From: Microcystis aeruginosa NIES-2549
GTDB lineage: Bacteria; Cyanobacteriota; Cyanobacteriia; Cyanobacteriales; Microcystaceae
Assembly (NCBI RefSeq): GCF_000981785.2
Contig: NZ_CP011304.1
Location: 1,560,001 to 1,592,000 of the forward strand
Length of the DNA stretch: 32,000 bases
Direction: 5' to 3'
The translations under genes were made by a program, and so were the position numbers. This document shows positions 11,059 through 28,343 of this stretch, piece by piece; position 1 is the first letter of the stretch, and each line of letters starts with the position of its first letter. Below the pieces are notes generated by a model, which was given only the letters and a program-made list of their open reading frames with translations, ran no database searches and had not been told where the DNA came from.

Positions 11059-12570
11059 CTAGGCTTTCTGTTCCTGTTTAGATTTATGTAGGGGATCCAT
11101 ATAAATCTCTAAGCGCTTAAATACCACGGAGGAAAGGGTAGTTAAAACCAAATAAACTAAAGCAACGGCAATATAAATCTCGAAAGCTTTATAGGTAGTG
11201 GCTACCATTAATTGACCTTGCCGGAATAATTCTTCAAAACCGATTACTGCCGCTAAACTGGTATCTTTAATTAGGGTGATAAATTCATTCCCCAACGGTG
11301 GCAACATCCGGCGAAAAGCTTGGGGAAAAATCACCTCGCGCATGGTTTGCACTGGGGACATTCCTAGACTAGAACAAGCTTCCCATTGACCATTATCGAT
11401 CGATTGAATACCGCCGCGCATAATTTCAGCTAAATAGGCCGCTACATTTAAACTGAGGGCAAATAAGGCCGCTGGTAAACGATCTAAGTCGATATTTAAG
11501 CCAATTTCTCGGAACAACCCGGGCAAACCAAAATAGATCAAGAATAATTGCACCAGCATCGGTGTTCCCCGAAAGAAATCCACATAGATGCGGCAAATTA
11601 TTTTTAACCATTTGTAGGGAGAAATCAGGGCAATAGCCACTAAAGTTCCGCCGATTAACCCGAACAGAAAAGACAGAACCGTTAACAGAATTGTCCAGGG
11701 AACCCCTTTAAAAATCAGGTTATAGAATAATTCTCCCCAGTTAAAACTCGATTCCTGTAAATTCTTTAAAGCTGGGGCAACTAAGGGTAATTCTGGCGGT
11801 TTTTCTCCAAACCATTGCCGAAAAATAGCATCGTACCGACCACTTTCTATGACTCGACCGAGAGCATCATTAATTAACTGGAGATAGGGGGAATTTTTGG
11901 GTAAAGCAATGCCGTAGAATTCTTCCGTTAATAATTCTCCGACTACTTTTACACCTCGTAAACCCGCTTCTTTAATTGCATACAAAGTCACGGGTTTATC
12001 GTTAACTACCGCATCAACTCGACCATTAATTAATTCCTGCAAAGCTAAAGCCGCCGAGTCAAATTGACTAACCACTGACCCGGGTATTTTTATCGCTTCT
12101 AAGGCTCCCGTCGTGCCAATTTGGACGGCAATTCTTTTGCCTTTTAAGTCTTCAAAATTTTTAATCGTTTTATTATCTTCCCGAACAGCGATCGCTAAAC
12201 CAGCCTTAAAATAAGGTCGAGAAAAAGAAATCGCCTGGGCCCGTTCGGCGGTGATAGTCATGCCACTAATAGCGGCTTCCACTGTTCTCGCTTGTAGAGC
12301 CGGAATAATGCCATCAAAGGGTAAATTTCTAAAGTCAATGTTGAGATCAGCTTCCTCTCCAATCGCTCGCATTAAATCGATATCAAACCCAGTTAATTGT
12401 CCCCCTTGTTGAAATTCAAAGGGCGGAAAAGTCGCTTCTGTGGCGACTCGAAAAGGATTAGGAGGAGTCTGGGAAAAAGCGGGAATAACACTTAATCCTA
12501 GCGCCAAGACTAATCCTAACAAGGCAAAGATAACTCTCTGTACCGCCCGCCCTCGCCAAAATTTAATCAT
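11059..12570 (-). CDS. amino-acid ABC transporter, fused periplasmic binding protein + permease (BgtB-like)
   Basis: A signal peptide and a family-3 solute-binding domain (ATEATFPPFEF, GFDIDLM) are fused to a His/Glu/Gln/Arg-type permease (EACSSLGMSPVQTMREVIFPQAFRRMLPPLGNEF). The same fusion is known for Synechocystis BgtB. Confidence 0.85.
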   Translation of the reverse strand: MIKFWRGRAVQRVIFALLGLVLALGLSVIPAFSQTPPNPFRVATEATFPPFEFQQGGQLTGFDIDLMRAIGEEADLNIDFRNLPFDGIIPALQARTVEAAISGMTITAERAQAISFSRPYFKAGLAIAVREDNKTIKNFEDLKGKRIAVQIGTTGALEAIKIPGSVVSQFDSAALALQELINGRVDAVVNDKPVTLYAIKEAGLRGVKVVGELLTEEFYGIALPKNSPYLQLINDALGRVIESGRYDAIFRQWFGEKPPELPLVAPALKNLQESSFNWGELFYNLIFKGVPWTILLTVLSFLFGLIGGTLVAIALISPYKWLKIICRIYVDFFRGTPMLVQLFLIYFGLPGLFREIGLNIDLDRLPAALFALSLNVAAYLAEIMRGGIQSIDNGQWEACSSLGMSPVQTMREVIFPQAFRRMLPPLGNEFITLIKDTSLAAVIGFEELFRQGQLMVATTYKAFEIYIAVALVYLVLTTLSSVVFKRLEIYMDPLHKSKQEQKA

Positions 12571-12768
12571 TTTTTAATTGTTTCTCCTTGATTTTTTTGC
12601 TCAATTAAGTTAAGGATTTCGTCCTACTTCCCACCCAAGACAGATGTAGAGAGACTATTTGAGTATTATGATTATTCCTCTTGATAAAATGTCGTCAAGG
12701 ATACAATCTAGCAGAAACTAATCTGGATACTTTTATACAGAATGTAAAATTTTTTACGAGAGGACATC

Positions 12769-13524
12769 ATGACCACTACCACCCCTGTGATTGTTAGTGA
12801 AGGTTTACGCAAAAGTTACGGCTCTTTAGAGGTACTCAAAGGAGTTACAGGCACTCTTTATCAAGGGGACGTGGTATCGGTAATCGGTCCCTCTGGCTGC
12901 GGCAAAAGTACCTTTTTACGCTGTCTCAATCGTTTGGAAACAATTAACGGCGGCCGCTTGGAGGTGATGGGAATTGACATCTCTTCCCCGAAGTTAAATC
13001 AATCGGTCCTCCGCAAGTTACGCAGCCGGGTAAGTATGGTGTTTCAACACTTTAATCTTTTTCCCCATCTCACCGTTTTACAAAACTTGATGTTGGCCCC
13101 CAAGCAAGTGTTACACCACCCGGAAAATGAGGCTAAAGATACGGCAATTCATTATCTGGAAAAGGTGGGTTTGGCCCCAAAAGCCGATGTTTATCCCGAC
13201 CAATTATCGGGAGGACAAAAACAACGGGTGGCGATCGCTCGCAGTCTCTGCATGAAACCAGAGGTGATTTTATTTGATGAACCCACTTCGGCCCTGGATC
13301 CGGAATTAGTCGGGGAAGTGTTAAACGTTATGCGTCAATTGGCCGATGAGGGGATGACTATGGTAGTCGTCACCCACGAAATGCAGTTCGCCAAGGAAGT
13401 CTCTAACAAGGTTTTGTTCTTTAATCAAGGTGTCATCGAAGAAGCAGGTGATCCCGACACTTTCTTTAATAATCCCCACAGCGAGCGCTTACAAGCCTTT
13501 TTAAGTCGCATCAATAGTAATTAG
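12769..13524 (+). CDS. amino-acid ABC transporter ATP-binding protein (GlnQ/BgtA-like)
   Basis: It has Walker [10 protein letters not shown], the signature [13 protein letters not shown], Walker [12 protein letters not shown] and an H-loop VVVTHEM. It is divergent from the permease gene. Confidence 0.9.
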
Positions 13525-13559
13525 GGTTGGCTGAAAAAGTTTGTCGGTGGGGTTATAGA

Positions 13560-14330
13560 ATAACCGATTACACCACTTTTTAGCGGAATCTCCTTGGTCA
13601 GCTGTGAACGTGATTGACATCCTCGCCGCCCTAAAAGTGCGGCGATTCCTAAACCTCACGATTTAAGTTTCTGCTTCCACCACCGTCGCATACCACAGTT
13701 AAAAAACCATGTACTGTCTTACACAGAGTCCACAGACTTTCGCCCCATTTCAGAAGCCCGATTCCGTGTGTCCCACGGTACGTTGACCGCCTATAGCTTC
13801 TTGTACTTGTTGCGCGCGACTTTTTACCCGGCCAAGCTTTTCTGGTCGGAACCCCCTAAGCCGAGTTTTCAAGGTGCTGCGCCGTCCACTTGGTTTTCGA
13901 GACTGGCCTTTTAATTCTAACGTAAAGCCAACCTAGAACGGCGGGGTTTCAGACCCAAAATTTCCGATGAACCAATGCCGCCAGACGGAAATACCCCGAG
14001 GATTTTCGCTGATTGTCGATGACCGAGGACATCGAAAAAGCCGCAATCTGAGCACTGGAGTTGGGAGGCAGTACTTGGGAGAAATTGGCAAAACAGACAG
14101 TAGAGTTGGCTGTATAGTGATCGCTAACCTGATGATCACCGATGGTGTCATTAGTCTCTATAGTCAGCGATTCCCTCTGTAGCGATGTTTTTGATGGTTT
14201 TCTGCTGCGAAACAAGCTATAATGGTCGAAAAGTCAAATTTGAAAAATTTTGCTTCCAACCCTATCGGCGTAAGGATTTCAGGAGTTGGCACCCAGTAGT
14301 ACATTAGCTTTGAATTGCTTTAACTGAGTC
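13560..14330 (-). mobile_element. Decayed IS200/IS605-family (IS1341-type) tnpB relic with an omega-RNA/right-end-like 3' region
   Basis: Minus-strand frames show broken TnpB-like pieces: AENHQ, VIIRLAITIQPT (resembling V.V.P.YTSQTC), RLFRCP....ENPRGISV (resembling R.F.C..CG..DRD.NAA.N) and TVGHTES. The 3' end has GGAATCGCCGCACTTTTAGGGCGGCGAGGATGTCAAT, a hairpin followed by GATGTCAA, as in many tnpB 3' ends. A long subterminal imperfect palindrome lies at 13536-13590. There are many stops and frameshifts. Boundaries are approximate. Confidence 0.45.
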
Positions 14331-14443
14331 TCTGTAAGACTTTCGGCTATAGCTAGTACATTCATAGGGGGAAAGTTTAGTTATGTTCTACTTGGAACAC
14401 AATCAAATTAAATCAACCCTTGCAATTTCATATTGAAGCGACA

Positions 14444-16168
14444 ATGAAAGCAATAACCTCAATTCTTGACACCAGAGCCGAGCAAACCCCCAATCAGTTA
14501 GCCTACATCTTTCTTAAGGATGGTCAAAATCAAGAATCATCCATTGACTACAAAACCTTACAGCAAGAATCAAAGGCGATCGCTGATAGCTTACTTTCTC
14601 TTTGCCGCCAAGGTGATCGCGCTTTATTACTTTATCCCCAAGGTTTAGAATTTATTACAGCTTTTTTGGGGTGTCTATATGCTGGGATTGTTGCGGTTCC
14701 CGCTTACCCACCAAAGCGTAATCAAAAAATGTCTCGATTACTAGCAATTATTGAAGATTCTCGCCCTCAAATTATTCTGACAACCAGTTCACTTGTAGAG
14801 AAAATTAAGTCAACACTTGAATCTTTTTTAGACTTATCAGTAACCAGACTTTTAGTCACAGACAATGTGAATAATAACCAAGACTTTAAATTGCATCTTC
14901 CCAGGATTAGCGGTGATACCCTAGCATTTCTTCAATACACATCAGGTTCAACTGGTGCGCCGAAAGGAGTCATGATTTCCCATGACAACGTTGCCCATAA
15001 TTCTGCTTATATTCAAAAAGCATTTCAACTGACAGGAAAAAGTGTTTCTATGACCTGGTTGCCCAGTTTCCATGACATGGGTTTAATTGATGGTATTATT
15101 CAACCGCTTTATACAGGTTTTTTAGGTGTTGTTATGTCGCCTGAATCTTTTTTAAAAAATCCAATGCTTTGGTTAGAAGCAATTACTAAATATCAAGCTA
15201 CTCATAGCGGCGGTCCAAATTTAGGCTATGAATTATGTGTGCAGAGAATTACGTCTGAACAGCAAGAAATGCTTGATCTCAGTAGTTGGATCACTGCCTA
15301 CAATGGAGCCGAGCCAATACGACGAAAAACGATGGAAAACTTTATTAACAAGTTTCAATCTTCTGGGTTTCAATCTCGATATTTTTATCCCTGTTACGGC
15401 ATGGCAGAAGCCACACTAATGATTTCTGGAGGTAATATCGAAGATGAGCCAGTTTACTTAAATGTTCAATCAGAATCCTTAGAGAATAATCAGGTAGTAG
15501 AAGCGGAGAAAGACAGTAAAAATTATCAGGAACTTGTCGGTTGCGGCCATGTCTGGGAAAATATGGCAGTAAAAATTGTCGATCCTGAAAGTTGTTTAGA
15601 ATGTGATGAAAATCAAGTGGGAGAAATTTGGGTTTCGGGTTCTAGTGTTGCCCAAGGATATTGGCAACAAGAAGAAAAAACGATCGCAACTTTTCAGGCT
15701 AAATTAGCTGATGGGGATCAAGGAAATTTTTTCCGAACAGGCGATTTAGGTTTTAGGCGAGAAGGAGAACTATTTATCACGGGAAGAATCAAAGATGTCA
15801 TCATTATTTGGGGACGAAATCATTACCCCCAAGACGTTGAATATTCTGTACAACAAAGTCATCAGGCTCTGCGTTTAGATTCTGGGGCAGCTTTTACAAT
15901 AGAAGTAGATAATCAAGACAAATTAGTGATTGTTCAGGAAGTAGAGCGTACCTATTTAAGCAAGTTAAATGTCAATGAAGTTTTCTCGGCTATTCGTGAA
16001 GCCGTTGCTCTCCATCATGCCTTACAGGTTTATGCGATCGCATTAATTAAACCCGCAAGTATTCTCAAAACCTCTAGCGGTAAAATTCAACGCCAGGCTT
16101 GTCGTCATGCTTTTCTCACAAACAGGCTGGCGATTGTTGCACAATGGCAACAAAATAAGTTATCATGA
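14444..16168 (+). CDS. fatty acyl-AMP ligase (FAAL)
   Basis: The adenylation core is YTSGSTGAPKGVMISH. The length and layout are FAAL-like (WLPSFHDMGL, GDLGF..GELFITGRIKD, SSGKIQRQACR). It is followed by a free ACP gene. The ATG is at 14444; the track start at 14420 is a TTG. Confidence 0.85.
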   Translation: MKAITSILDTRAEQTPNQLAYIFLKDGQNQESSIDYKTLQQESKAIADSLLSLCRQGDRALLLYPQGLEFITAFLGCLYAGIVAVPAYPPKRNQKMSRLLAIIEDSRPQIILTTSSLVEKIKSTLESFLDLSVTRLLVTDNVNNNQDFKLHLPRISGDTLAFLQYTSGSTGAPKGVMISHDNVAHNSAYIQKAFQLTGKSVSMTWLPSFHDMGLIDGIIQPLYTGFLGVVMSPESFLKNPMLWLEAITKYQATHSGGPNLGYELCVQRITSEQQEMLDLSSWITAYNGAEPIRRKTMENFINKFQSSGFQSRYFYPCYGMAEATLMISGGNIEDEPVYLNVQSESLENNQVVEAEKDSKNYQELVGCGHVWENMAVKIVDPESCLECDENQVGEIWVSGSSVAQGYWQQEEKTIATFQAKLADGDQGNFFRTGDLGFRREGELFITGRIKDVIIIWGRNHYPQDVEYSVQQSHQALRLDSGAAFTIEVDNQDKLVIVQEVERTYLSKLNVNEVFSAIREAVALHHALQVYAIALIKPASILKTSSGKIQRQACRHAFLTNRLAIVAQWQQNKLS

Positions 16169-16215
16169 CAGGTATTTGTTTTTCTTTGCAAATGTTTTGG
16201 TGGTAACTTGTTTTT

Positions 16216-16461
16216 ATGAGTCGAGAAAAAATTGAACAGTGGCTAACAGATAGGCTGACAAGTCTTCTAGGTGTAGATAGGGAAGACATTGATTTAGAAA
16301 AATCTATTTTCACCTATGGACTAGATTCTTCCGTTGCCTTGAGTCTTACTGGCGAGTTGGAAGTCATGCTTGGTTTAGAGCTAGACCCAATTTTATTTTG
16401 GGAATATCCCAAAATTAGTGAATTATCTGAATATTTAGTAGCTGAACTAGCTCAAAAATAG
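16216..16461 (+). CDS. acyl carrier protein (stand-alone)
   Basis: The protein is 81 aa and has the phosphopantetheine attachment motif YGLDSSVAL. Confidence 0.85.
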   Translation: MSREKIEQWLTDRLTSLLGVDREDIDLEKSIFTYGLDSSVALSLTGELEVMLGLELDPILFWEYPKISELSEYLVAELAQK

Positions 16462-16537
16462 GGGTGACTTTAATCATGAATGGGAACAAAGTTTTATTTA
16501 TCCTTTTGATGCAGAATTTCAGGCTAATCCCTATCCT

Positions 16538-17695
16538 GTGTTTGCGCAGCTTCGTCAAGAAGATCCTATCCACAAAAGTATTTTTGGAACATGGATTATT
16601 ACTCGTTATGCCGATGCCCTTACTATTTTAAATGATAAGCGATTCCAAGTAGATAATTTTCCTGAACGCCTTCAGCTAAAAAGTGCCTATCTCAAAGAAG
16701 ATAATCTAGACATTCTTGCACAAACTACTGATAAATGGTTGTTTTTTTTGGAACCACCCGATCATACTCGAATTAAAAATGCACTAATTCCATCCTTTTC
16801 TAGAGCCTCGCTCAATGCTATGCGTCCTAAAATTCAGGCAATTGTTGACGATTTACTGGATAGATTTGCCCCAAGGGGAGAGATGGAAATCATAGCAGAT
16901 TTTGCGACCCCTCTTCCTGCTTTTGCGATTACTAAAATATTAGGTTTACCGATTGAAGATTATCAACAATTAATGCGATGGTCTGCTAAGACCGTTTTCA
17001 TTTTTGATCAACCAGTATCTTTGGAAGAATATAAAGAGCAAAATCAAATTCTCATTGAACATAGAGCCTATTTTGCTCAAAAAGTAGCTGAATATAAAAG
17101 ACAACCAAACGACGGTTTGATCAGCCAGTTAGCTAATTATAAAGATAATATAAATGCCCTAACAGAAGATGAAATAATTAGCACTTCTATTCTGTTAATG
17201 GCGACATCCCAGGAATCAATGAAAGGACTACTGAGTAATGGTCTTTTAGCCCTTTTAAAACACCCACAAAGTTTAGAATATGTAAGACAAAATCCTGGTA
17301 ATATTGAAAATATTGTCGAAGAATTGCTACGTTATGATAGTCCTATTCAGTATGTCTCTCGTCGAGCAATAGAAGACGTTGAGGTTTCAGGAAAAATTAT
17401 TCATCGTGGGGAGTATGTCGTTATCTATCTCGGTGCAGTAAACCATGACCCTGAATACTTTTCTAATCCCCAACAACTGGATTTCAGTCGTCGCAAACCT
17501 AATTTGGGTTTTGGCGGTGGCCTTCACTATTGCATAGGAATGTTTTTAGCCAGGCTTCAAGTGCAAATCGCCCTAAATGCCATGGTGCAACGTTTGCCAG
17601 ATATTTGCCTCAATACAGATAAATTAGACTGGTGCGACAGCAAGATTTCAAGAAGATTAAAAACTCTTCCTGTCAAATTTACTCCTCTTGCTTAA
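16538..17695 (+). CDS. cytochrome P450; the true N-terminus is probably further upstream (see finding)
   Basis: The heme-thiolate loop is FGGGLHYCIGMFLA, with ExxR EELLRY and I-helix-like LLMATSQES. The same frame stays open back to 16451 and encodes YPFDAEFQANPYP, typical of P450 N-termini. It contains no ATG, GTG or TTG before the GTG at 16538. Confidence 0.85.
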   Translation: MFAQLRQEDPIHKSIFGTWIITRYADALTILNDKRFQVDNFPERLQLKSAYLKEDNLDILAQTTDKWLFFLEPPDHTRIKNALIPSFSRASLNAMRPKIQAIVDDLLDRFAPRGEMEIIADFATPLPAFAITKILGLPIEDYQQLMRWSAKTVFIFDQPVSLEEYKEQNQILIEHRAYFAQKVAEYKRQPNDGLISQLANYKDNINALTEDEIISTSILLMATSQESMKGLLSNGLLALLKHPQSLEYVRQNPGNIENIVEELLRYDSPIQYVSRRAIEDVEVSGKIIHRGEYVVIYLGAVNHDPEYFSNPQQLDFSRRKPNLGFGGGLHYCIGMFLARLQVQIALNAMVQRLPDICLNTDKLDWCDSKISRRLKTLPVKFTPLA

Positions 17696-17731
17696 TCTCA
17701 AGGTTAATTTTAAAAAAGCGATCGCTATTTT

Positions 17732-17853
17732 CAGTTAAATAACCTCAGTTCGGGTTAAGGCTATTTTCTTACTCATTCCACAAAAGAATAGGGTTTACAG
17801 CGAACGAGAAAATTAGGGTTTTAGCTTATCCCGAACTCAGGTTAAATAAGCTG
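17732..17853. repeat. MITE-like element: about 30-nt imperfect terminal inverted repeats around a roughly 62-nt core
   Basis: The left arm CAGTTAAATAACCTCAGTTCGGGTTAAGGC pairs with the reverse complement of the right arm, CAGCTTATTTAACCTGAGTTCGGGATAAGC. The core AACCT[C/G]AGTTCGGG[T/A]TAAG is conserved between arms. Confidence 0.5.
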
Positions 17854-17984
17854 TTCATAATTTAAATTGCTTGTTGAGACGAGGCAAGAGGCAACAGTAA
17901 AAGGATTGGAGGAGATTCGGCTGATCATTAAGAATAAGCGGTTTAAATACGTCTTAGCTTAACAGAATAGCGATCGCATTTTTG

Positions 17985-18024
17985 TCATAAATAAGAGCAT
18001 CACCTTTGATAATTAGTGATGCTC
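17985..18024 (-). terminator. Rho-independent terminator downstream of the lectin-like gene
   Basis: A perfect 9-bp stem GAGCATCAC (17995-18003) / GTGATGCTC (18016-18024) is followed on the minus strand by TTATTTAT. Confidence 0.55.
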
Positions 18025-18047
18025 ACTTTAAATGAATTAATTGTTTC

Positions 18048-19256
18048 TTAGGAAATTACTTCAACCGTCCACTCATTGCCAATACCTGTACTCCAAGTGG
18101 TAACACCTTGCTCAGAATCAGGACGATGTAAATAATCGCCTTTCCATGACTTCAATTTGATCTTGTCACCAGCGATCTTCTCCACCGTCCACTCATTGCC
18201 AATACCTGTACTCCAAGTGGTAACACCTTGCTCAGAATCAGGACGATGTAAATAATCTCCCTTCCAAGACTTGAGTTTCAATTTCTTTCCTGTGGATAGA
18301 ATATCCTGCTTGTAAGTTCCGCTAATACTATCAATTCGCAGACCAGTGGGCCCACCGATACTATGCAGTTTAAACTCCAGGGTGTTAGTTCCGACGACAA
18401 ATCCCGTCGAAATTGAAAAACGACTAATCTTTGTCCACCAAGAGCTTAAAGCAACAGGTTTACCCACCGATACCCCGTTAAGCACAATATCAGTAATGTT
18501 GTCATCCACGGAAAGTTCACCGACAATGGAAGCTTCAGAAAAATTGGGTAAAGTAAAGGTGGTTGTATAGCTATAGTTGCCAACCGGACCGTTAGCCGAA
18601 GGTTTTTTAGGGCCAATCCATCGGGCGGTATTGGTATTCGTAACCCAGTTAATTGGTGCTAAATCCTTGTTGGGAGTGGTAACACCTGGAGTTACTGTCC
18701 CCGCCGGATAGGTTGTTAACTTATAGTGGGGGTCGGGAATGCTATCCCCTAAAACCTGACGGGCATCGTCAACCCCCGTATTGTAGAGGTTAGCGATCAC
18801 TCCTGGCGCAGTGGGGACAATTTCCGTTGCTTTAGCAGTAGCAGAATAAGCAATCGTCAACTTGCCAGTGTTATCTGCGTACCATTTAGGATCATCGTTA
18901 TTGACGAAAGAAACTGTGTCTCCCGGTTGTAATTCAAAGCTTTGTTGTTTGCCGCTCACCGTAGATTTTGTGTTGCCCTTGGCATCTTTAATTTCGCCAA
19001 CTAAGGCCCCTGGATTCAAATTGGGATACTTAAGCCCAAATTTTTCATCGTTTTTGTCTCGGACATGACCATTGCCATCCACTGGGGTTTTGTATTTGGC
19101 TAGGCTAGGATCAGATGTTTCAAAGTTAATTAAAGTCCATTGACCTGTTGCCGTCAGGGAGATTGTCACCGTGCTACCGGAATTATTAGCCAGAGCTGGG
19201 GGATTATTAAGCTGGGTAGCCAGTTCTAATTGAGCCAGTCTGAGATGTTGAGACAA
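18048..19256 (-). CDS. multidomain lectin-like protein (PA-IL/LecA-like N-domain, carbohydrate-binding-like middle domain, two 40-aa Trp/Gly-rich C-terminal repeats)
   Basis: In the N-domain, GALVGEI...VSFVNNDDPKWYADNTGKLTI resembles the LecA pattern ...LIYNDVPGTYGNNSGSFSV. The middle region (NLYNTGVDD..DPHYKL...WIGP...GNYSYTTTFTLP...VDDNITDIVLNGV...GTNTLEFKLHS.GGPTGL) resembles domains seen in PEP-CTERM-type secreted proteins. The C-terminus carries KSWKGDYLHRPDSEQGVTTWSTGIGNEWTVE twice. The start is a TTG and no signal peptide is evident. Confidence 0.7.
   Translation of the reverse strand: MSQHLRLAQLELATQLNNPPALANNSGSTVTISLTATGQWTLINFETSDPSLAKYKTPVDGNGHVRDKNDEKFGLKYPNLNPGALVGEIKDAKGNTKSTVSGKQQSFELQPGDTVSFVNNDDPKWYADNTGKLTIAYSATAKATEIVPTAPGVIANLYNTGVDDARQVLGDSIPDPHYKLTTYPAGTVTPGVTTPNKDLAPINWVTNTNTARWIGPKKPSANGPVGNYSYTTTFTLPNFSEASIVGELSVDDNITDIVLNGVSVGKPVALSSWWTKISRFSISTGFVVGTNTLEFKLHSIGGPTGLRIDSISGTYKQDILSTGKKLKLKSWKGDYLHRPDSEQGVTTWSTGIGNEWTVEKIAGDKIKLKSWKGDYLHRPDSEQGVTTWSTGIGNEWTVEVIS
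18055..18294 (-). repeat. Tandem 120-nt duplication inside the lectin-like gene
   Basis: Positions 18064-18137 and 18184-18257 are identical over 74 nt. The flanks are similar but diverged. Confidence 0.9.
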
Positions 19257-19401
19257 GGGAAGCTAAAACCATAAAAACAGAGAACTCGTTTACATTTGAC
19301 GGATAAAGCCAAGGCAGTTATTCCACGCTTCAGCTTGACTGATCCTAAATTATATTGATATAGTAGTCAAGTGTACATGGCCACAGTATATACGAAACTT
19401 A

Positions 19402-22400
19402 ATGATTAAACAGCCCATAGCAATTGTTGGTATGGGATGTCGTTTTCCCGGAGCCAATAATCCTAGTGAATTTTGGGAGATACTCCAAAATGGCGTACAT
19501 ACGATAACTAAAGACCCTATAGATCGCCCTACGCAGATGACAGGTTGGGCGGGATTTCTCGAGGGCATAGATAAATTTGATGCGGCGTTTTTTGGCATTT
19601 CTTCGGAAGAAGCGATCAAGATGGATCCTCAACACAGACTTTTGTTAGAAACCTCTTGGGAAGCCTTAGAAGACGCTGGGCTAGTTCCCGCTAATTTAGC
19701 AGGGACCGATACTGGCGTTTTTATTGGGCTTTCTGGTAGTGAATATCTGAATTTATTAATTGAAGATTCAACCTTTAATACCGCCATTGGAACTCTCGAC
19801 TGTATGTTAGCCAATAGGATTTCTTCCTATTTTGATTTTCACGGTTTAAGTCTAACAATAAATACCGCTTGTTCTTCTGTATTAGTGGCAATAGATCGTG
19901 CCTGTCAAAGCTTATGGAATGAAGACATTTGTTTGGCTTTAGTAGGTGGTACACATCTAACTTTTTCTCCCGTGATTGCCTCTAGATATGTCAATGCGGG
20001 TTTGATTTCTGCCGATGGTTTGTGTAAAACTTTTGATGCTAAAGCGGATGGTTATGTTCGGGGCGAGTGCATCGGAGTCGTTGTCTTAAAACTTCTATCC
20101 CAAGCTCAAGCGGATGGCGATCGCATTTATGCTGTGATTCGGGGGAGTGGCGTTAATCACAATGGTAGTGGTAATGGCTTGACCGCACCCAATATGCAAG
20201 CCCAGATTGCTCTCTTGCAAAAAGTTTATCAACGGGCAGAAATTAATCCCAATTCCATTAATTATATTGAAGCTAACGGTACGGCAACGCCCATTGGAGA
20301 TGCCTTAGAAATGAAGGCATTAGGAACAGTAGTTGGCAAAGATCGAACTGCTGATAATCCCTGTCGGGTGGGCAGTGTAAAAACCAATATTGGTCATACA
20401 GAAGGTGCTTCTGGTATTGCGGGGTTGATTAAAGTTGCTCTTTCCCTCTATCACCGTCAAATACCCCCCACTTTACATTGTCAAGAGCCTAATCCTGCCA
20501 TTCCTTTTGCCAAACTAGGACTAAAAGTACAACAAACTTTGGAAACTTTACCCGAAGAAACAGGGCCAATTCGAGCAGGGGTTAGTTCTTTTAGTCTGGG
20601 GGGAACGAATGCTCATCTGATATTGGAATCAGTCCCGTCTCAAGCAAAAGCTGAACCTAATCTTTCTCCTTTACAAGTTTTTACTCTAACCGCCAAGACT
20701 TCTACTGCTTTACAAGCTTTGGTGCAACGTTATCAATCTTTCCTAGAAGATAACCCTGAAGTCGCTTTGTCCGATATTTGTTTTATGGCTAATACTAGGC
20801 GATCTCAATTCTCCCACCGTCTAGCTATGATCACTGAATCAAAAGAACAATTGCAAGAGCAACTAAATATGATTGTTCGCCAAGAAGCATTATCAAGTGT
20901 ATTCAGTGGACAAGTTATAAGGCAAAAATCCGCACCAATTTGTTTTATTTTTTCTGGAAAAAGCCAGAAACTTAAACTAATTATTAAATCCCTTGCTCAA
21001 AGTCATCCAGCCATCTATTCATTGCTAGAAGAATTGCAACCACTTATTTCTTCTTATTCGACAAGATCATTTTTTCAATTAATAGAAGAAGAAAATTTAG
21101 AAAACCCTTTTCTTAGCCAAGTAGTCAACTTTATCTGTGAATATGCGATGACTCAATTATGGCAATACTGGGGAATAAAACCAGCAATCTGTATAGGTTA
21201 TGGTCTGGGAAATTATGCTGCTTTAGTATTGGCGGGAATTTTAACTGTAGAAGAGGCAATTTCTTTAATCATAGAAGATAAAAACTCTGAATCACCTCCC
21301 AAGTTTCAAGCCGCAAAAATTCCCGTAATTTTACCGATCAGTGGTAAGACAATTAAAATTCATGAAACTATTGACTATAAGCAGTGGCAAAAAGAATTTA
21401 ATGTCAATAACATGAACGCAGAAAATTTACCTAGCCTATTATCAGACTCTAATGTAATTTTGCTAGATCTATGTTCTCTGGAGATCAAAAGTCATGATTA
21501 TCTCAAACAGCTTGATGATTATAACATAAAAAGTTCTGAACAAATAAAAAGTTTTGATTATTTATATTATTTATTTTCCACTTTAATCAAATTCTGGTTA
21601 ATGGGGGTGAAAATTGATTGGTCTAAAGTTTCAAACTATCAACAATGTTATCCTATTTCAGTCCCTACCTATCCCTTTGAGGGTCAATCATACTGGATTG
21701 ATGTATCACCTAAAATACCGAATCAACAAAGCATCCATAATCAAGAGAACTATTTGAAGGGACAACAAAGCAATAATCAAGAGAACTATTTGAATGTAGA
21801 ATTTATCGCTCCTCGTGATAATTTAGAAATGCAATTGACCGAGATTTGGCGAGAAGTTTTAGGAATCCAGACTATCGGAGTCAAAGACAATTTCTTCAAT
21901 TTAGGGGGACAATCTCTGGTGGCGGTCAAGCTATTTGCTCAAATCGAAAAAGTCTTCAAGGTCAATCTACCATTAGTCACCCTTTTCCAAGCTCCAACGG
22001 TTGAGCAAATAGCTAGGATTCTCCGGGAGAAAGCGGTTGAAACTGACCCCCAGACTCACAGCCTTAGACTTGAAAGCCAACTAAATCCTCAGTCTTCTCT
22101 AGTAGCTATGCAGTCGAGTGGCGCGAAAAGACCATTTTTTCTCGTCCCCGGTGGCGGCGGCGGCGAAAATGAATTAATCATCTATGCCAAATTAGTCTAT
22201 CTTTTTGGTCAAGAACGGCCTGTTTATGGATTCCAAGCAAGGGGTTGGGACGGAATCGAAAATCCTCACAATACTGTAGAGGCTATGGCAACCGACTACA
22301 TCAAAGAAATCCGTACCGTCCAACCCGAAGGACCTTATCTTCTCGGAGGTGAATGTATAGGCGGACTTGTCGCGTTGGAAATGGCACAACAGCTAGTCGC

Positions 22401-22875
22401 ACAAGGACAGAAAGTGGGATTATTAGTTTTTCTCGATACACCTGTTCTAACTCTGCCGAGAAAACTCCGCTATCAGGTGGAGAAATTTTTCCAAATTCCA
22501 AGAATTCGCTATCATCTCAGAGAACTCCAATTCTCAGCCAAAGGAGAGAGTCTCACCTATATTTTTAACCAAGCATCAAAGGTGAAGGAAAAGCTGGCAG
22601 AAGACAGCTTCAGTCGCCACCGAAAAAAAGTTGCCAAAAACTACATAAAAATGATTATGCACTACAGACCACAAACCTATTCTGGTGGAATTACCTGGTT
22701 AGTCACTGAAAGTTTTTATCCCAAGGCTCAAAATCAGGGGTGGAACCATCTAGCCAGAGGAGGACTAGAAATTCACCGGATTCCAGGAACTCACGACTCT
22801 TATCTCGGTGACAATGTCGAGACTACGGCTGAAAGGCTTAAAGCTTGCCTTGACGAAGCGCAGGCAGATGATTGA
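19402..22875 (+). CDS. type I PKS-like synthase: KS (Cys-Asn-His) - degenerate AT-sized region - PCP-type carrier - thioesterase (Cys nucleophile)
   Basis: KS motifs are GMGCRFPGA, TACSS (Cys codon 19870-19872), EANGTAT (Asn 20275-20277 where His is expected) and NIGHTEGASG. The AT-like region has FIFSGKSQK and GYGLGNYAA in place of GQGSQ and GHSxGE. A post-AT linker VPTYPFEGQSYWI is present. The carrier motif is FFNLGGQSL (Ser 21913-21915). The TE has FFLVPGGGGG, YGFQARG, LGGECIGG (Cys 22354-22356) and GTHDSY. Confidence 0.9.
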   Translation: MIKQPIAIVGMGCRFPGANNPSEFWEILQNGVHTITKDPIDRPTQMTGWAGFLEGIDKFDAAFFGISSEEAIKMDPQHRLLLETSWEALEDAGLVPANLAGTDTGVFIGLSGSEYLNLLIEDSTFNTAIGTLDCMLANRISSYFDFHGLSLTINTACSSVLVAIDRACQSLWNEDICLALVGGTHLTFSPVIASRYVNAGLISADGLCKTFDAKADGYVRGECIGVVVLKLLSQAQADGDRIYAVIRGSGVNHNGSGNGLTAPNMQAQIALLQKVYQRAEINPNSINYIEANGTATPIGDALEMKALGTVVGKDRTADNPCRVGSVKTNIGHTEGASGIAGLIKVALSLYHRQIPPTLHCQEPNPAIPFAKLGLKVQQTLETLPEETGPIRAGVSSFSLGGTNAHLILESVPSQAKAEPNLSPLQVFTLTAKTSTALQALVQRYQSFLEDNPEVALSDICFMANTRRSQFSHRLAMITESKEQLQEQLNMIVRQEALSSVFSGQVIRQKSAPICFIFSGKSQKLKLIIKSLAQSHPAIYSLLEELQPLISSYSTRSFFQLIEEENLENPFLSQVVNFICEYAMTQLWQYWGIKPAICIGYGLGNYAALVLAGILTVEEAISLIIEDKNSESPPKFQAAKIPVILPISGKTIKIHETIDYKQWQKEFNVNNMNAENLPSLLSDSNVILLDLCSLEIKSHDYLKQLDDYNIKSSEQIKSFDYLYYLFSTLIKFWLMGVKIDWSKVSNYQQCYPISVPTYPFEGQSYWIDVSPKIPNQQSIHNQENYLKGQQSNNQENYLNVEFIAPRDNLEMQLTEIWREVLGIQTIGVKDNFFNLGGQSLVAVKLFAQIEKVFKVNLPLVTLFQAPTVEQIARILREKAVETDPQTHSLRLESQLNPQSSLVAMQSSGAKRPFFLVPGGGGGENELIIYAKLVYLFGQERPVYGFQARGWDGIENPHNTVEAMATDYIKEIRTVQPEGPYLLGGECIGGLVALEMAQQLVAQGQKVGLLVFLDTPVLTLPRKLRYQVEKFFQIPRIRYHLRELQFSAKGESLTYIFNQASKVKEKLAEDSFSRHRKKVAKNYIKMIMHYRPQTYSGGITWLVTESFYPKAQNQGWNHLARGGLEIHRIPGTHDSYLGDNVETTAERLKACLDEAQADD

Positions 22876-22951
22876 AACCCGAATCAAGATATACTCTACC
22901 ACGGCTGGCTTGTCTGAATTCGCCGCCAATATTTTTAATTTTGAATGACTT

Positions 22952-23860
22952 ATGAAGGCTCCAGTGGCTTTTTTTATCTTTAACCGACCTCAACTGACAG
23001 CAAAGGTATTTGAAGGGATTCGTCAGGCCAAACCCAACAAACTGTTTATCATTGCCGACGGTCCGCGCTCCGCTCGACCAGACGACCGCGACAAGTGCGC
23101 TGCCACCCGTGCCGTTGTCAAACAAATCGATTGGGACTGTGAAGTATTCAGGAACTATTCAGAGGTTAATCTAGGCTGCGGACGCAGGGTATCTACAGGT
23201 ATTAGCTGGGTTTTTGAGCAAGTCGAGGAAGCCATCATCCTAGAGGACGACTGCCTCCCCCACCCAACTTTTTTTCCATTTTGCGAACAACTATTGGAGA
23301 AATATAGAAATGAGCCAAAAATAATGAGTATCAGCGGAACTAACTGGTTAGGACAATGGAAATCAGAGCAGCAGAGTTATCATTTTAACTTTTGTGGGGG
23401 CATTTGGGGATGGGCCACTTGGAAAAGAGCTTGGCAAGGCTATGACTATGAGATTAAATTATGGTCAAACCGAAAAATCAGGCAAGAAATTAAAGATTTT
23501 ATCGAGGATGAACAAATATTTAAATGGTACGACCAAGTTTTCTCCCAAGCCTATAGAGGAGAAATTAATACTTGGGACTATCAGTGGATGTTTCAATGCC
23601 TTTTCCACTCAGGATTAGAAGTGGTTCCCTCAGTCAACTTAATTTCTAATATTGGCTTCGGGGAAGAAGCATCCCATACTAAAAACCCCTATGATTTCAG
23701 AAGCAATCTTCCCCAGCACTCTATGTTATTTCCGCTGAAGGAAGCCAAGGAATTAGTAATAGACAGAGAATATGGCAAACAAGTAGTAAAAAAACTTTCT
23801 ATCAATAGCCATCTCCTTGTCAGATTGAAAAATAAAATCAAGAGGTGGTGGGCTGGGTAA
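22952..23860 (+). CDS. GT-A fold glycosyltransferase (GNT-I / HlpA-like family)
   Basis: It has an N-terminal Rossmann-like start (VAFFIFNRPQL), a DxD-type motif ILEDDCLPHPTFF and a length of about 300 aa. It lies 76 nt downstream of the synthase, on the same strand. Confidence 0.65.
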   Translation: MKAPVAFFIFNRPQLTAKVFEGIRQAKPNKLFIIADGPRSARPDDRDKCAATRAVVKQIDWDCEVFRNYSEVNLGCGRRVSTGISWVFEQVEEAIILEDDCLPHPTFFPFCEQLLEKYRNEPKIMSISGTNWLGQWKSEQQSYHFNFCGGIWGWATWKRAWQGYDYEIKLWSNRKIRQEIKDFIEDEQIFKWYDQVFSQAYRGEINTWDYQWMFQCLFHSGLEVVPSVNLISNIGFGEEASHTKNPYDFRSNLPQHSMLFPLKEAKELVIDREYGKQVVKKLSINSHLLVRLKNKIKRWWAG

Positions 23861-24193: not shown

Positions 24194-24223
24194 TTGACAG
24201 GAGGGAAAGACAGTGGTTATAGT
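24194..24223 (+). promoter_or_regulatory. Candidate sigma70-type promoter of the RHH/Ycf46/DUF1257 operon
   Basis: TTGACA (24194-24199), an 18-nt spacer and TATAGT (24218-24223) lie about 35 nt upstream of the ATG at 24258. Confidence 0.45.
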
Positions 24224-24257
24224 AAGGACACATACCCGGGTAAACCAATTTAGTGAT

Positions 24258-24608
24258 ATGCAAGACAAGCAAAAAGTCACACTGTACCTTCCCCCTGGAG
24301 TCCATCGTCAACTAAAAATAAGGGCTGCGATCGATGAAGAATCGATGTCAGGGCTGGTGGAGAAAGCGATCGCTTTCTACCTAAAATACCCCGAAAAGGT
24401 AGAAGAAATCGAAGCCGCCGCCTATGGCAAAACCTATCAGGTTCATGTCTGTCCCGAGTGTGATGCCGCGTTAGTAATGAAAGAAGATCGGCTAAGGTCG
24501 ATCAAACGCCAGCCCGGAATAGTCGGCGACGAGTTCCCGCTCGAAGTTCCCGAACCCGTCGGCGCCCAAGCAACCGCAGAGGGAGAAGCAGCCTTAGTTC
24601 CCTGCTAA
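24258..24608 (+). CDS. conserved cyanobacterial protein with an RHH-like N-terminus and a CxxC element (Synechocystis slr0373-like position)
   Basis: KVTLYLPPGVHRQLKIRAAIDEESMSGLVEKAIAFYL resembles a ribbon-helix-helix fold, and a single CPEC motif follows. It lies directly upstream of the ycf46-like gene. The ATG is at 24258. Confidence 0.65.
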   Translation: MQDKQKVTLYLPPGVHRQLKIRAAIDEESMSGLVEKAIAFYLKYPEKVEEIEAAAYGKTYQVHVCPECDAALVMKEDRLRSIKRQPGIVGDEFPLEVPEPVGAQATAEGEAALVPC

Positions 24609-24687
24609 ACTCTCAGTAGTCGAACAAGGCATCTACAGCCATCAGCCGCCCAAGGTCAAAACCGTTACCACAAATAGGGTCGATGTT

Positions 24688-26199
24688 ATGAAAGAAGAGC
24701 TAGAAATTCTCGTCAAGGCTCAGTATCCCCTGATTTACCTCGTCACCTCCGAGGAGGAAAGGGCGGAAGAAGCCATCAGCAAAATAGCCCAACTAAATAC
24801 ACAACATCGACGGGTGTTTGTCTGGACTGTCACCCACGGCATGATCGAACAGGGTCAACCGCGCCAAACCAGTCAACATAATACCGTGTCTCCAGAAGCG
24901 GCGATCGAATGGGTAGTGCGTCAACGGGAAGCGGGCATCTACATCTTCAAAGACCTGCATCCGTTCATCACTTCCGCTCCGGTCACTCGCTGGCTAAGAG
25001 ATGCGATCGCCAGCTTTAAAGGAACCGAAAAAATCATTATTTTAATGTCTCCCCTGCAAGAAGTCCCCATAGAACTAGAGAAAGACGTAGTAGTTCTAGA
25101 TTTTCCCCTGCCGGACATGGGAGAGTTAGATACGGTTCTCTCGCAACACCTAACCAGAAATCAAAATCGTCGTACCACCACAGAGGTCCGGGAAAAACTC
25201 CTGAAAGCGGCCTTGGGTTTAACCAAAGATGAAGCCGAAAAAGTTTACCGGAAAGCCTATGTAAAAGCGAGCAAATTGACGGAAGACGAGGTAGAAATCG
25301 TCCTTTCCGAGAAAAAACAACTGATTCGCCGCAACGGAATTTTAGAATACATTGAAGAGGACGAGACCATCAATGCCGTCGGCGGTCTGGAAGAATTAAA
25401 AAAATGGTTAAAACAGCGCTCAAACGCCTTTACAGAAAGAGCCAGAGGTTACGGACTCCCCCAACCGAAAGGGATGCTAATTTTAGGAGTACCCGGCTGT
25501 GGTAAGTCCTTAATCGCTAAAACCACCTCGCGTCTCTGGAGTTTACCGCTCCTGCGCTTAGATATGGGACGGGTTTACGATGGTTCCATGGTGGGACGGT
25601 CCGAGGCTAACCTGCGTAATGCCTTAAAAACTGCCGAATCCATCTCTCCGGCCATTCTTTTCATCGATGAATTAGATAAAGCTTTTGCCGGTGGCACGGG
25701 ATCCGCCGATTCCGATGGGGGAACCTCTAGCCGCATCTTCGGCTCCTTCCTGACTTGGATGCAGGAAAAAACCTCGCCCGTCTTCGTCATGGCCACAGCT
25801 AACCGGATTGAACGGCTACCCGGGGAATTTCTCCGTAAGGGGCGCTTCGATGAAATCTTCTTTGTCGATTTGCCCAATTCCGAAGAAAGACAAGATATCT
25901 TTAATATTCACCTGACTAAACGACGCTCCGACATTTCTCGCTTCGATTTGGAGCAGTTAGCCAAGGTATCCGATGGGTTTTCCGGTGCGGAAATAGAACA
26001 GGCGCTGATTGCCGCCATGTATGAGGCCTTCGCCCAGGATCGCGAATTCACGCAATTAGACATTATTGCGGCGATTAAGGCGACTCTGCCCCTATCTCGC
26101 ACCATGACCGAACAGGTAACGGCCCTGCGTGATTGGGCCAGACAACGCGCCCGACCTGCTTCGGCCTCCGTCGCTGAGTACCAGCGATTGGAGTTCTAA
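24688..26199 (+). CDS. ycf46: AAA+ ATPase Ycf46 family
   Basis: The protein is 503 aa, with the N-terminal domain YPLIYLVTSEEERAE, Walker A GVPGCGKSL, Walker B ILFIDELDK and a second region of homology ATANR...RKGRFDEIFFVDLP. This architecture is typical of cyanobacterial and plastid Ycf46. Confidence 0.85.
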   Translation: MKEELEILVKAQYPLIYLVTSEEERAEEAISKIAQLNTQHRRVFVWTVTHGMIEQGQPRQTSQHNTVSPEAAIEWVVRQREAGIYIFKDLHPFITSAPVTRWLRDAIASFKGTEKIIILMSPLQEVPIELEKDVVVLDFPLPDMGELDTVLSQHLTRNQNRRTTTEVREKLLKAALGLTKDEAEKVYRKAYVKASKLTEDEVEIVLSEKKQLIRRNGILEYIEEDETINAVGGLEELKKWLKQRSNAFTERARGYGLPQPKGMLILGVPGCGKSLIAKTTSRLWSLPLLRLDMGRVYDGSMVGRSEANLRNALKTAESISPAILFIDELDKAFAGGTGSADSDGGTSSRIFGSFLTWMQEKTSPVFVMATANRIERLPGEFLRKGRFDEIFFVDLPNSEERQDIFNIHLTKRRSDISRFDLEQLAKVSDGFSGAEIEQALIAAMYEAFAQDREFTQLDIIAAIKATLPLSRTMTEQVTALRDWARQRARPASASVAEYQRLEF

Positions 26200-26333
26200 C
26201 AGACTTTCGCCCGCTCCCAACGGGATGAAAGGCTAGTTCTCAGGGACTAGCAATGCCTCGCAAAGCCGCTTGGCGGCACTCTTTAACTCTCAATCTGTTG
26301 TTGTTGATTCTTATCTACAAAGAGGAAATTCCA

Positions 26334-26687
26334 ATGTCTCATTTTAGCACTCTCCGGACCAAAATCACCGATGCCGAAATCCTCAAAGCTTCTCTCCGCG
26401 ACCTCGGTATTAGCGTAAAAACCGAAGCTGATGTTCGTGGTTACAACGGTCAACGGGTTCGCTCCGACATCGTTGCTGTTCTCGATGGCGAATATGATCT
26501 CGGTTGGTCTCGCAATACCGACGGCAGTTTCGATTTAATCGCCGACCTCTGGGGTGTAGCCAAAAAACACAATCAAACCGAATTGATCAACTCGATTAAC
26601 CAAAAATACGCTGTGAACAAAACCCTATCCGAAGTGAAACAGCGCGGTCTGCAAAACGCTAACGTTAAGCTAGTCGTTCAAAGCTAA
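26334..26687 (+). CDS. DUF1257 (Ycf35-like) protein
   Basis: MSHFSTLRTKITDAEILKASLRDLG...DLGWSRNTDGSFDLIADLWGV matches my memory of the Ycf35/DUF1257 family. An RBS AGAGGAAA lies upstream of the ATG at 26334. Confidence 0.8.
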   Translation: MSHFSTLRTKITDAEILKASLRDLGISVKTEADVRGYNGQRVRSDIVAVLDGEYDLGWSRNTDGSFDLIADLWGVAKKHNQTELINSINQKYAVNKTLSEVKQRGLQNANVKLVVQS

Positions 26688-27886: not shown

Positions 27887-28025
27887 AAGTTAAATTATTT
27901 GATTAAGGTGTAGAATGGATAGTATTGATTATAACTCAGATATTGGGGGGTAATTTGGGAAAAAGTAATGTTGGGTTTCTACAATATCAGCGATCGCACT
28001 ACGTTCTTCGGCATCGCACTGACAG

Positions 28026-28343
28026 CTGCCATCAATGGGCATGGTGCGTTCCCCAAAATCGATCGCTTTGTAGCAGGACTTGCATTAGGGAACGCACCCT
28101 ACGACTGCCATCAATGGGCATGGTGCGTTCCCCAAAATCGATCGCTTTGTAGCAGGACTTGCATTAGGGAACGCACCCTACGACTGCCATCAATGGGCAT
28201 GGTGCGTTCCCCAAAATCGATCGCTTTGTAGCAGGACTTGCATTAGGGAACGCACCCTACGACTGCCATCAATGGGCATGGTGCGTTCCCAAAAATCGAT
28301 CACTGGAGTAATAGGACTTGCATTAGGGAACGCACCCTACGGC
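28026..28343 (+). repeat. Tandem array of four 79-nt units, each with an 11-bp inverted repeat GGTGCGTTCCC / GGGAACGCACC
   Basis: Units start at 28026, 28105, 28184 and 28263. The first three are identical. The last has a diverged loop and is followed by a T8 run (28346-28353). Confidence 0.9.

Follow-up and report, generated by a model that had tools for sequence, protein, structure and literature searches.

An accessory FAAL-ACP-P450-synthase island in Microcystis: a candidate lipid cassette associated with lectin-like genes

We analysed a 32,000-nucleotide (nt) stretch of chromosomal DNA from a Microcystis-type cyanobacterium (Microcystis aeruginosa NIES-2549, contig NZ_CP011304.1, positions 1,560,001 to 1,592,000; hereafter the window), whose best protein matches are named Microcystis aeruginosa. 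Between positions 14444 and 23860 it carries six genes, for a FAAL (fatty acyl-AMP ligase), an acyl carrier protein (ACP), a cytochrome P450, a lectin-like protein (encoded on the minus strand), a synthase of the polyketide synthase (PKS) type and a GT-A fold glycosyltransferase (GT). An earlier reading made from the letters alone (the sequence-only reading) had described this segment as an orphan lipid-type biosynthetic island, and its domain calls proved correct, with all six genes at their stated coordinates, on evidence from Pfam, NCBIfam, PDB and AlphaFold2 (AF2). The island is real, mobile and accessory. With moderate confidence we read it as an accessory thiotemplate cassette for a fatty-acid-derived lipid, built around a synthase that would not elongate the chain it receives.

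The limits of the island emerge from a blastn comparison with a second Microcystis genome (L001), in which DNA homology to the window covers 14443-17743 and 19349-23849; it begins beside the FAAL start and stops inside the end of the GT-A gene, in agreement with the limits given in the sequence-only reading. The genes flanking the island in L001 are entirely unlike those of the window. Because homology stops at the island's edges and the flanks differ, the island is accessory, as had been suspected: the same boundaries are found at another genomic place. Its GC content (0.402, against 0.453 and 0.448 in the two flanks and a window mean of 0.436) bears out the impression, first gained by eye, that it is more AT-rich than its surroundings. 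The transposon relic said to adjoin it comes down to a weak Pfam DDE_5 match at 13967-14182 (plus strand; E 0.004, 17 bits against a cut-off of 27); this possible transposase remnant lies in the 0.9-kb spacer to the left of the island and is a feature of the flank, outside the pathway. As had also been claimed, the open reading frames (ORFs) of at least 90 amino acids (aa) in the window contain no ketoreductase (KR), dehydratase (DH) or enoylreductase domain, no adenylation (A) or condensation (C) domain of the nonribosomal peptide synthetase (NRPS) type and no phosphopantetheinyl transferase.

The core of the cassette, FAAL-ACP-P450 (one or two copies of the P450)-synthase, recurs beyond the window in Microcystis (L001, L091), Cylindrospermopsis (L002, L003) and Dolichospermum (L004, L086, L087) and, more distantly, in Pseudanabaena (L005), Aphanothece (L006) and a further cyanobacterium (L007). 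On two other contigs the view is cut short: Umezakia L085 has the synthase with lectin-like neighbours and ends just upstream, before FAAL-ACP-P450 could show, and the Microcystis-type metagenome contig L088, which shares the right flank of the window and has the GT, the synthase and lectin-like genes, ends before any P450. Ratios of nonsynonymous to synonymous substitution rates (Ka/Ks) between the window and L001 are 0.17 for the FAAL, 0.27 for the P450, 0.26 for the synthase and 0.37 for the GT. Two full P450 paralogues stand in L005 and in L007. Directly downstream of the Dolichospermum synthase lies a gene for a 135-137 aa protein without a Pfam match (L004 13414-13827, L086 13468-13875, L087 5783-6190), followed in all three loci by bestrophin, alpha/beta-hydrolase and epimerase genes in the same order.

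The first gene of the island (14444-16168, plus strand) encodes 574 aa from an ATG at 14444, in an ORF that runs from a TTG at 14420, and has a Pfam AMP-binding match (E 3e-66) and a DIP2-like C-domain. Its NCBIfam matches all fall below the equivalog cut-offs, with FAAL models at E 1e-137 to 1e-116 and the best CoA-ligase model at E 1e-90; the top 15 PDB matches are all fatty acyl-AMP ligases, and alignment to FAAL structures is full-length. On its sequence, then, we assign the product to the FAALs and not to the acyl-CoA synthetases. The free-standing ACP (81 aa, 16216-16461, plus strand; PP-binding, E 6e-15) starts 48 nt downstream of the FAAL, and its best NCBIfam match is the N-terminal ACP of Pks13. 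In every related locus in which a FAAL is seen the ACP adjoins it or is fused to it, and the 81-aa protein is the predicted acceptor of the FAAL. The two form a single ORF of 669-676 aa in L005 (2497-4506), L006 (6189-8219) and L007 (4113-6143).

The synthase (1157 aa, 19402-22875, plus strand) gives Pfam matches to a ketosynthase (KS), part of an acyltransferase (AT), a PP-binding domain and a thioesterase (TE). It had been called atypical, a description that holds. The AT lacks its serine, the first catalytic histidine of the KS is an asparagine, and the thiolation (T) domain and TE are of NRPS type. We aligned 24 members of its family and took a census of 56-57 clusters (43-98% identity); all members are cyanobacterial and 1100-1190 aa long. 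A scan of genome contigs with the synthase alignment was swamped by generic KS patterns and returned three true family loci. In the KS (19402-20661, plus strand; Pfam ketoacyl-synt N and C) the catalytic positions are Cys157 (at 19870), Asn292 (20275) and His332 (20395). The acyl-accepting cysteine, the lysine and the second histidine are invariant across the aligned family, and Asn292 stands at the position of the HGTGT histidine (His1, which serves decarboxylation). Among 56 family clusters this position is histidine in 44, glutamine in 7 and asparagine in 5. In bit scores the KS is nearest to CurL (511), followed by DEBS (about 400) and the Pks13 structures (375-378).

The degenerate AT-like domain (AT0, about 221 aa, 20944-21606, plus strand) reads GYGLG in place of GHSxG, with Gly601 (at 21202) in the serine position. 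Of the 319 positions of Pfam Acyl_transf_1 only 2-114 are matched, and at 28.5 bits the match stays below the cut-off of 32.7; the segments with the arginine and the (Y/H)A(S/F)H motif (HAFH) are missing. The active-site His-Ser pair of an AT is found in none of the 56 family clusters, and most members have GYGxG. Across the family the domain is uniformly about 210-225 aa long, where a normal AT has about 300 aa, and its mean identity (44-52%) compares with 40% for the TE; since it is constant in length and conserved as well as the TE, it is a maintained structural domain and not debris. The segment that encodes it has a GC content of 0.312, and the rest of the synthase gene 0.43-0.45.

Distant relatives of the cassette have ACP-P450(-P450) upstream of normal elongating modules (L008 1-11700, L034 5400-20300). 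HGTGT is present in all three of these modules, and GHSxG in that of L008 and in the second of L034; in the first of L034 our search pattern did not match the AT motif. In L008 a KS-AT-KR-ACP protein is followed by a C-T-TE protein that lacks an A domain and whose T-TE portion is 38% identical to that of the window; L034 has two PKS modules. There are hints here that the KS-AT0-T-TE synthase arose when a deletion joined a PKS module to a C-T-TE protein.

The T domain (21802-22041, plus strand; PP-binding, with a DNFFxLGGxS motif and Ser838 at 21913) resembles the peptidyl carrier proteins (PCPs) of NRPSs, which are its best PDB matches, and the T-TE region as a whole is nearest to NRPS PCP-TE didomains. 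The TE (22114-22872, plus strand; Pfam Thioesterase) has its catalytic residues at Cys985 (22354), Asp1012 (22435) and His1131 (22792) and is of the cysteine type, with the motif GECIGG. The best PDB match of the T-TE region, AB3403 (4ZXH), reads GWCFG, so that the window TE shares the GxCxG motif of cysteine-nucleophile NRPS thioesterases, of which ObiF is a further example; unlike these, it follows a PKS-type KS-AT0 and would release a fatty acyl chain and not a peptide. A comparison of window 22114-22872 with the proteins P0003 and P0361 bears on the origin of this domain. Identity between the P0003 synthase and the window synthase is 94-100% over the stretch that starts with the KS and ends with the post-AT linker, 83% in the T domain and 37% in the TE, where the nucleophile of P0003 is serine and that of the window synthase is cysteine. 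The window TE shares 84% identity with its counterpart in a C-A-NMT-T-TE NRPS and lies in a clade of cysteine TEs on NRPS termination modules. A near-identical chassis with an unlike TE, taken with this 84% match, argues that the release domain has been exchanged, and by its sequence the window TE was brought in from the termination module of an NRPS. Ahead of the T domain, the linker contains a 36-nt tandem duplication (21726-21797, 81% identity; repeated peptide ...NQENYL...).

The P450 (16476-17695, plus strand; Pfam p450, CYP107-like or BioI-like) had been assigned to the right family, and what went unseen is a 1-nt frameshift in the window copy. The true start is the ATG at 16476, and a deletion at about 16500, after codon 8, shifts the frame (ATG AAT GGG AAC AAA GTT TTA TTT A-T CCT), so that the longest ORF (385 aa) runs from a GTG at 16538 to 17695 and lacks about 21 N-terminal residues. 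In the frameshift region the window has TTTATCC and L091 has TTTAATCC; the frameshift shows against homologues as well. L091 is a metagenome contig that is 99.1% identical to the window over 12153-17743 and has the same ABC-transporter flank, and its P450 is intact. The deletion, a single base in a short run of A that is not shared by this 99% identical contig, is either very recent or an error. Both the heme-thiolate motif (FGGGLHYCIG, Cys at 17531) and the ExxR-type motif (EELLRY) are present. The best PDB match of the window ORF is the BioI-ACP complex 3EJB (E 2.5e-70, over the full length), followed by PksS and CalO2, and identity to BioI at aligned positions, estimated by eye from the alignment, is about 35-40%. 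BioI (CYP107H1; PDB 3EJB/3EJD/3EJE) oxidises a fatty acyl chain held on an ACP. That the nearest solved relative is BioI with acyl-ACP fits oxidation of a carrier-bound chain, as the sequence-only reading had proposed, and we infer that the island P450 oxidises an ACP-tethered acyl chain; unlike BioI it has no biotin-gene context. Exact-sequence look-ups with the window synthase and the window P450 gave no match.

The last gene (22952-23860, plus strand) encodes a 302-aa protein (GnT-I-like, or 'HlpA-like') with no Pfam, NCBIfam or PDB sequence match. Its AF2 model has a mean confidence score (pLDDT) of 91, and Foldseek places it with GnT-I (1FOA, E 1e-11), POMGnT1, GnT-II and SpsA; E98, D99 and D100, which form an EDD motif at 23243, are invariant in 34 homologues. 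A confident model on GnT-I-type folds and an invariant EDD together make the protein a GT-A glycosyltransferase, and the earlier call is thus upheld by fold and motif. The GT-A accompanies the cassette only in Microcystis versions. Other GTs occur in homologous clusters, namely a GT1/UDPGT in L007 (8657-9943, between the P450s and the synthase) and a GT2 in L092 (1358-2098, beside an LPG_synthase_TM protein and a few kb from the synthase). Recurrent, non-homologous GTs (GT-A, GT1/UDPGT and GT2) lend modest backing to a glycosylated product in some lineages. The 300-aa gene beside the Cylindrospermopsis synthase, considered as a GT-A homologue, was ruled out, being a relative of the lectin-like gene.

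In the mechanism that we favour, the FAAL would adenylate a free fatty acid and load it onto the 81-aa ACP (as homology and the invariable FAAL-ACP pairing suggest), and the BioI-like P450 would oxidise the ACP-tethered chain, with hydroxylation the likeliest outcome and BioI-type C-C cleavage a possible one. The synthase would then act as an adaptor without extension, in which Cys157 of the KS accepts the chain before its transfer to the NRPS-type T domain, AT0 being a structural remnant; the TE (Cys985/Asp1012/His1131) would release the chain by hydrolysis, by lactonisation or by transfer to an acceptor, and in Microcystis versions the GT-A would probably glycosylate either the oxidised lipid or the acceptor of that lipid. 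We favour a relay without extension because the AT is dead family-wide, His1 is dispensable in several lineages, the carrier is PCP-like and there is a precedent in ClyE (described below). The NRPS-type T domain and TE argue against malonyl loading by the AT of fatty-acid synthesis, and a PCP-type carrier is unlikely to be malonylated by that enzyme. A hydroxy-fatty-acyl, possibly glycosylated product is a reasonable reading, because the P450 is nearest to BioI with acyl-ACP and three GT types occur in homologous clusters; an oxylipin macrolactone of the sacrolide or mueggelone type is a guess. With its frameshifted P450, the window copy may yield an unoxidised product or nothing, unless the frameshift is a sequencing error.

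The sequence-only reading named no characterised cyanobacterial analogue, but one exists in ClyE/NocP, the KS0-AT0 PKS of the chlorosphaerolactylate pathway (PMC7923214), which by its published description appears to be the closest characterised system. In that pathway ClyA (FAAL) and ClyB (ACP) are followed by halogenases that act on the acyl-ACP and then by ClyE, which consists of a KS0 without the histidine, an AT0 of 227 aa without the serine and a T domain (PMC7923214; summarised in PMC10088813), and perdeuterated fatty acids are incorporated whole (PMC7923214). The cluster clyA-F corresponds to nocL-Q of the nocuolin region (PMC7923214, PMC5333925). Like it, the island is cyanobacterial and combines a FAAL and a free ACP, tailoring of an ACP-bound chain, a KS without the histidine, an AT0 of about 225 aa without the serine and a T domain; both release through an NRPS-type TE, and the cly region has a gene annotated as lectin-like, NocS, nearby. 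The window shares with ClyE-type systems an AT without serine, a FAAL, an ACP and a tailoring gene upstream in gene order, as also in those related loci where this block is visible, and a carrier after AT0; retention of the KS cysteine with loss of the HGTGT histidine is true of the window synthase and only partly of its family (H 44, Q 7, N 5). The island differs in tailoring with a P450, where cly uses dimetal halogenases, in having neither the depsipeptide C-A-KR module nor a DH, and in the direct fusion of T-TE to KS-AT0.

The lectin-like gene (18048-19256, minus strand, 402 aa; a weak DUF569 beta-trefoil match, E 0.0014) had been regarded as separating two blocks of the island; it is in fact a co-conserved partner, with relatives that flank the synthase in 9 of 12 contexts, in varying position and orientation. 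These contexts are the window, Cylindrospermopsis (where the gene lies downstream of the synthase), the three Dolichospermum loci, Pseudanabaena, Umezakia, L088/L091 and the distant L092, so that the adjacency recurs over five genera with the order rearranged. The protein consists of a conserved N domain (residues about 17-145), a middle beta-sandwich (about 150-318) and two 40-aa DUF569/beta-trefoil-like repeats. Its AF2 model (pLDDT 69) shows two beta-sandwiches, for which Foldseek gives CBM35/CBM6 and Vip3/Cry toxin domains at low TM scores, and neither the N nor the middle domain found a match when searched as a profile against all PDB sequences, so that a likeness of the N domain to PA-IL (LecA) was dropped. 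The two domains are 68% and 80% identical, respectively, to those of a 681-aa Dolichospermum protein in the same place and on the same strand. At the C-terminal end, a 98-nt direct repeat (18061-18158 and 18181-18278; 120 nt apart, 94% identity) encodes KLKSWKGDYLHRPDSEQGVTTWSTGIGNEWTVE twice. It came from a separate repeat search, Tandem Repeats Finder having reported no repeats in the island. Two such repeats are present, whereas a beta-trefoil needs three; homologues have more, and AF2 confidence there is below 50. Across the family a conserved two-domain core is joined to interchangeable C-terminal modules (DUF569 trefoil, LamG, ricin, beta/gamma-crystallin, lamin-tail, jacalin and PA-IIL).

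Among close Microcystis relatives the segment between P450 and synthase is variable. By blastn, the window segment 17744-19348 is absent from L001, and L091 and L088 have three minus-strand genes in its place; the number of lectin-like copies is 0 in L001, 1 in the window and 2 in L088 and in L091, and the latter two encode, beside the two lectin-like proteins, a beta-propeller-like repeat protein of at least 278 aa. Palindromes of the HIP1 type (GCGATCGC) form an inverted repeat (17712-17729 and 17966-17983) at the left edge of the lectin indel, and similar palindromes occur at 20103-20131 and 24358-24376. Lectin-like gene and synthase diverge from an intergenic region (19257-19401) with promoter-like sites at 19335-19364 (plus strand) and 19377-19349 (minus strand), which are consensus matches only. 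The lectin-like protein may be a functional partner of the cassette, one that could bind the lipid or glycolipid, deliver it or direct it to a glycan. A broader proposal, to which we give only a small chance of being right, is that cassette and lectin-like proteins form one two-part system of bloom-forming cyanobacteria, in which an oxidised, sometimes glycosylated lipid would be handed by the TE to the lectin N and middle domains, or carried by them, and a swappable C-terminal sugar-binding module would direct it to a particular glycan surface, be it that of the cell's sheath, of a neighbour, of a grazer or of a parasite.

Several observations weigh against a non-elongating lipid cassette with a glycosylation step and a lectin-like partner. 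Forty-four of the 56 family clusters keep His1 of the KS, so the family may still condense; a relay through a KS0 to a TE seems redundant; and the Ka/Ks of AT0 against L001 is 0.53, a value that is based on a small Ks. The P450 reaction, the chemistry of the TE and the acceptors of the GT and the lectin-like protein are all inferred. Relatives of the lectin-like gene are missing in L001, L006 and L007; the family also occurs away from the cassette (L093), and one of the three look-ups from lectin-like homologues fell elsewhere. The family of the GT-A comprises 8000 or more widespread proteins, which NCBI names GT2, GT-A or 'HlpA-like'. Finally, a full-text literature search (for the cassette, for the sacrolide, mueggelone and gloeolactone clusters and for orphan PKSs of Microcystis) found no paper that names the locus and no described product; within the literature searched, the cluster is an orphan, as had been supposed.

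The foremost rival is one round of elongation with an extender loaded in trans, which stays in play since 44 of 56 clusters keep the histidine, although we consider it unlikely. The KS would be competent for condensation: a trans-acting AT (for example, the malonyl-CoA:ACP transacylase of fatty-acid synthesis) would load malonyl onto the T domain, the KS would add one C2 unit, and the TE would free a beta-keto acid that either decarboxylates to a methyl ketone or cyclises. The invariance of the KS cysteine, lysine and second histidine, and the first histidine in most clusters, are what such a KS should have, and Asn or Gln at His1 can still form a hydrogen bond, like the Asn of the Cys-His-Asn triad of KAS III. 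On the other side, no AT is encoded in any of the loci, the carrier is PCP-like and not ACP-like, and His1 has been lost in several independent lineages, that of the window included, while the rest of the protein is under purifying selection. The ClyE precedent, too, is non-elongating (PMC7923214).

We judge it improbable that the window copy is a decaying, non-functional remnant, with the lectin-like gene and the GT-A as mere neighbours in a recombination hot spot. The frameshifted P450, the Asn in the KS and the dead AT, the swapped-in TE, the lectin segment as an indel with 0 to 2 copies in Microcystis relatives, the ubiquity of the GT-A family and the lectin-like homologue found elsewhere could all be taken as signs of decay. 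But every ORF except that of the P450 is intact, Ka/Ks is 0.17-0.37, and AT0 is constant in length and conserved across genera; the frameshift concerns one base in a short A run and is not seen in a 99% identical contig, so that it could be of very recent date or an error, and the adjacency of lectin-like gene and synthase is kept over five genera with rearranged order.

Two further systems were compared. The cyanobacterial olefin synthase Ols is arranged as FAAL-ACP-KS-AT-KR-ACP-ST-TE (ST, sulfotransferase), and the island resembles it in being cyanobacterial, FAAL-primed and built on a single type I PKS module that ends in a TE. Unlike Ols, it lacks a KR and a sulfotransferase, its AT is dead, its TE is of NRPS type and its genes are separate; membership was rejected, with no KR or ST match in the synthase or elsewhere in the window. 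The parallel with FadD32/Pks13, which the sequence-only reading had drawn, stands for the architecture, a FAAL feeding an ACP and then KS-AT-carrier-TE, but not beyond it, since the AT is dead and Pks13 comes no nearer to the KS than DEBS does. The TE of Pks13 transfers its product to a sugar. Unlike Pks13, the island has a free-standing ACP, an AT without serine, an Asn for His1 of the KS and a carrier and TE of NRPS type, and membership was rejected here also, since the AT serine is absent, Asn292 breaks the Cys-His-His triad and the KS resembles that of Pks13 only in a generic way. A Pks13/NocG-like head-to-head condensation, in which the FAAL would charge the T domain as well as the free ACP, the KS would join the chains by a Claisen reaction without decarboxylation and the TE would free or transfer a branched beta-keto lipid, is mirrored in the gene architecture and in the ACP's best NCBIfam match, has a precedent in the cyanobacterial KS NocG, reported to join two FAAL-loaded acyl chains (PMC10088813), and fits the tolerance of H, N or Q at His1, but it is less likely than a single elongation and in our view very improbable, with a KS nearer to CurL and DEBS than to Pks13, a dead AT where Pks13 needs an active one, and a T domain of PCP type for the FAAL to load.

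Around the island, the left flank of the window contains ftsQ, ftsZ, thiD and an amino-acid ABC transporter. In the right flank, genes for a 131-aa ribbon-helix-helix (RHH) antitoxin-like protein, a 503-aa AAA ATPase and a DUF1257 protein run in one direction (24213-26687), and the 131-aa RHH gene is also the next after the GT in L088. At 28022-28340 a unit of about 78 nt is repeated in tandem about four times; it matches a short element at 1681-1762 of L001 with 89-92% identity and is probably a dispersed Microcystis repeat.

By analogy with cly, we file the cassette as a candidate FAAL-primed KS0-AT0 line that would have kept no more than a minimal release module and would have a P450 and lectin-like proteins as partners. 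Bloom formers, including Microcystis, hold many orphan polyketide-type clusters whose lipid products are almost unexplored, and a 2026 review finds the PKS products of Microcystis still largely uncharacterised (PMC12838216). With four core genes found in at least six bloom-associated genera at differing genomic sites, the cassette lends itself to study as a candidate for a trait exchanged horizontally. It would stretch the adaptor logic of the ClyE KS0-AT0 to a minimal FAAL-ACP-P450-KS0-AT0-T-TE line, and it offers natural TE swaps (serine against cysteine) on a near-identical chassis; if the two-part system proved true, swaps of the TE and of the lectin modules would retune release and targeting. 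It also ties a lipid pathway to rapidly diversifying lectin-like proteins, a tie that may bear on colony formation, cell-cell recognition or defence.

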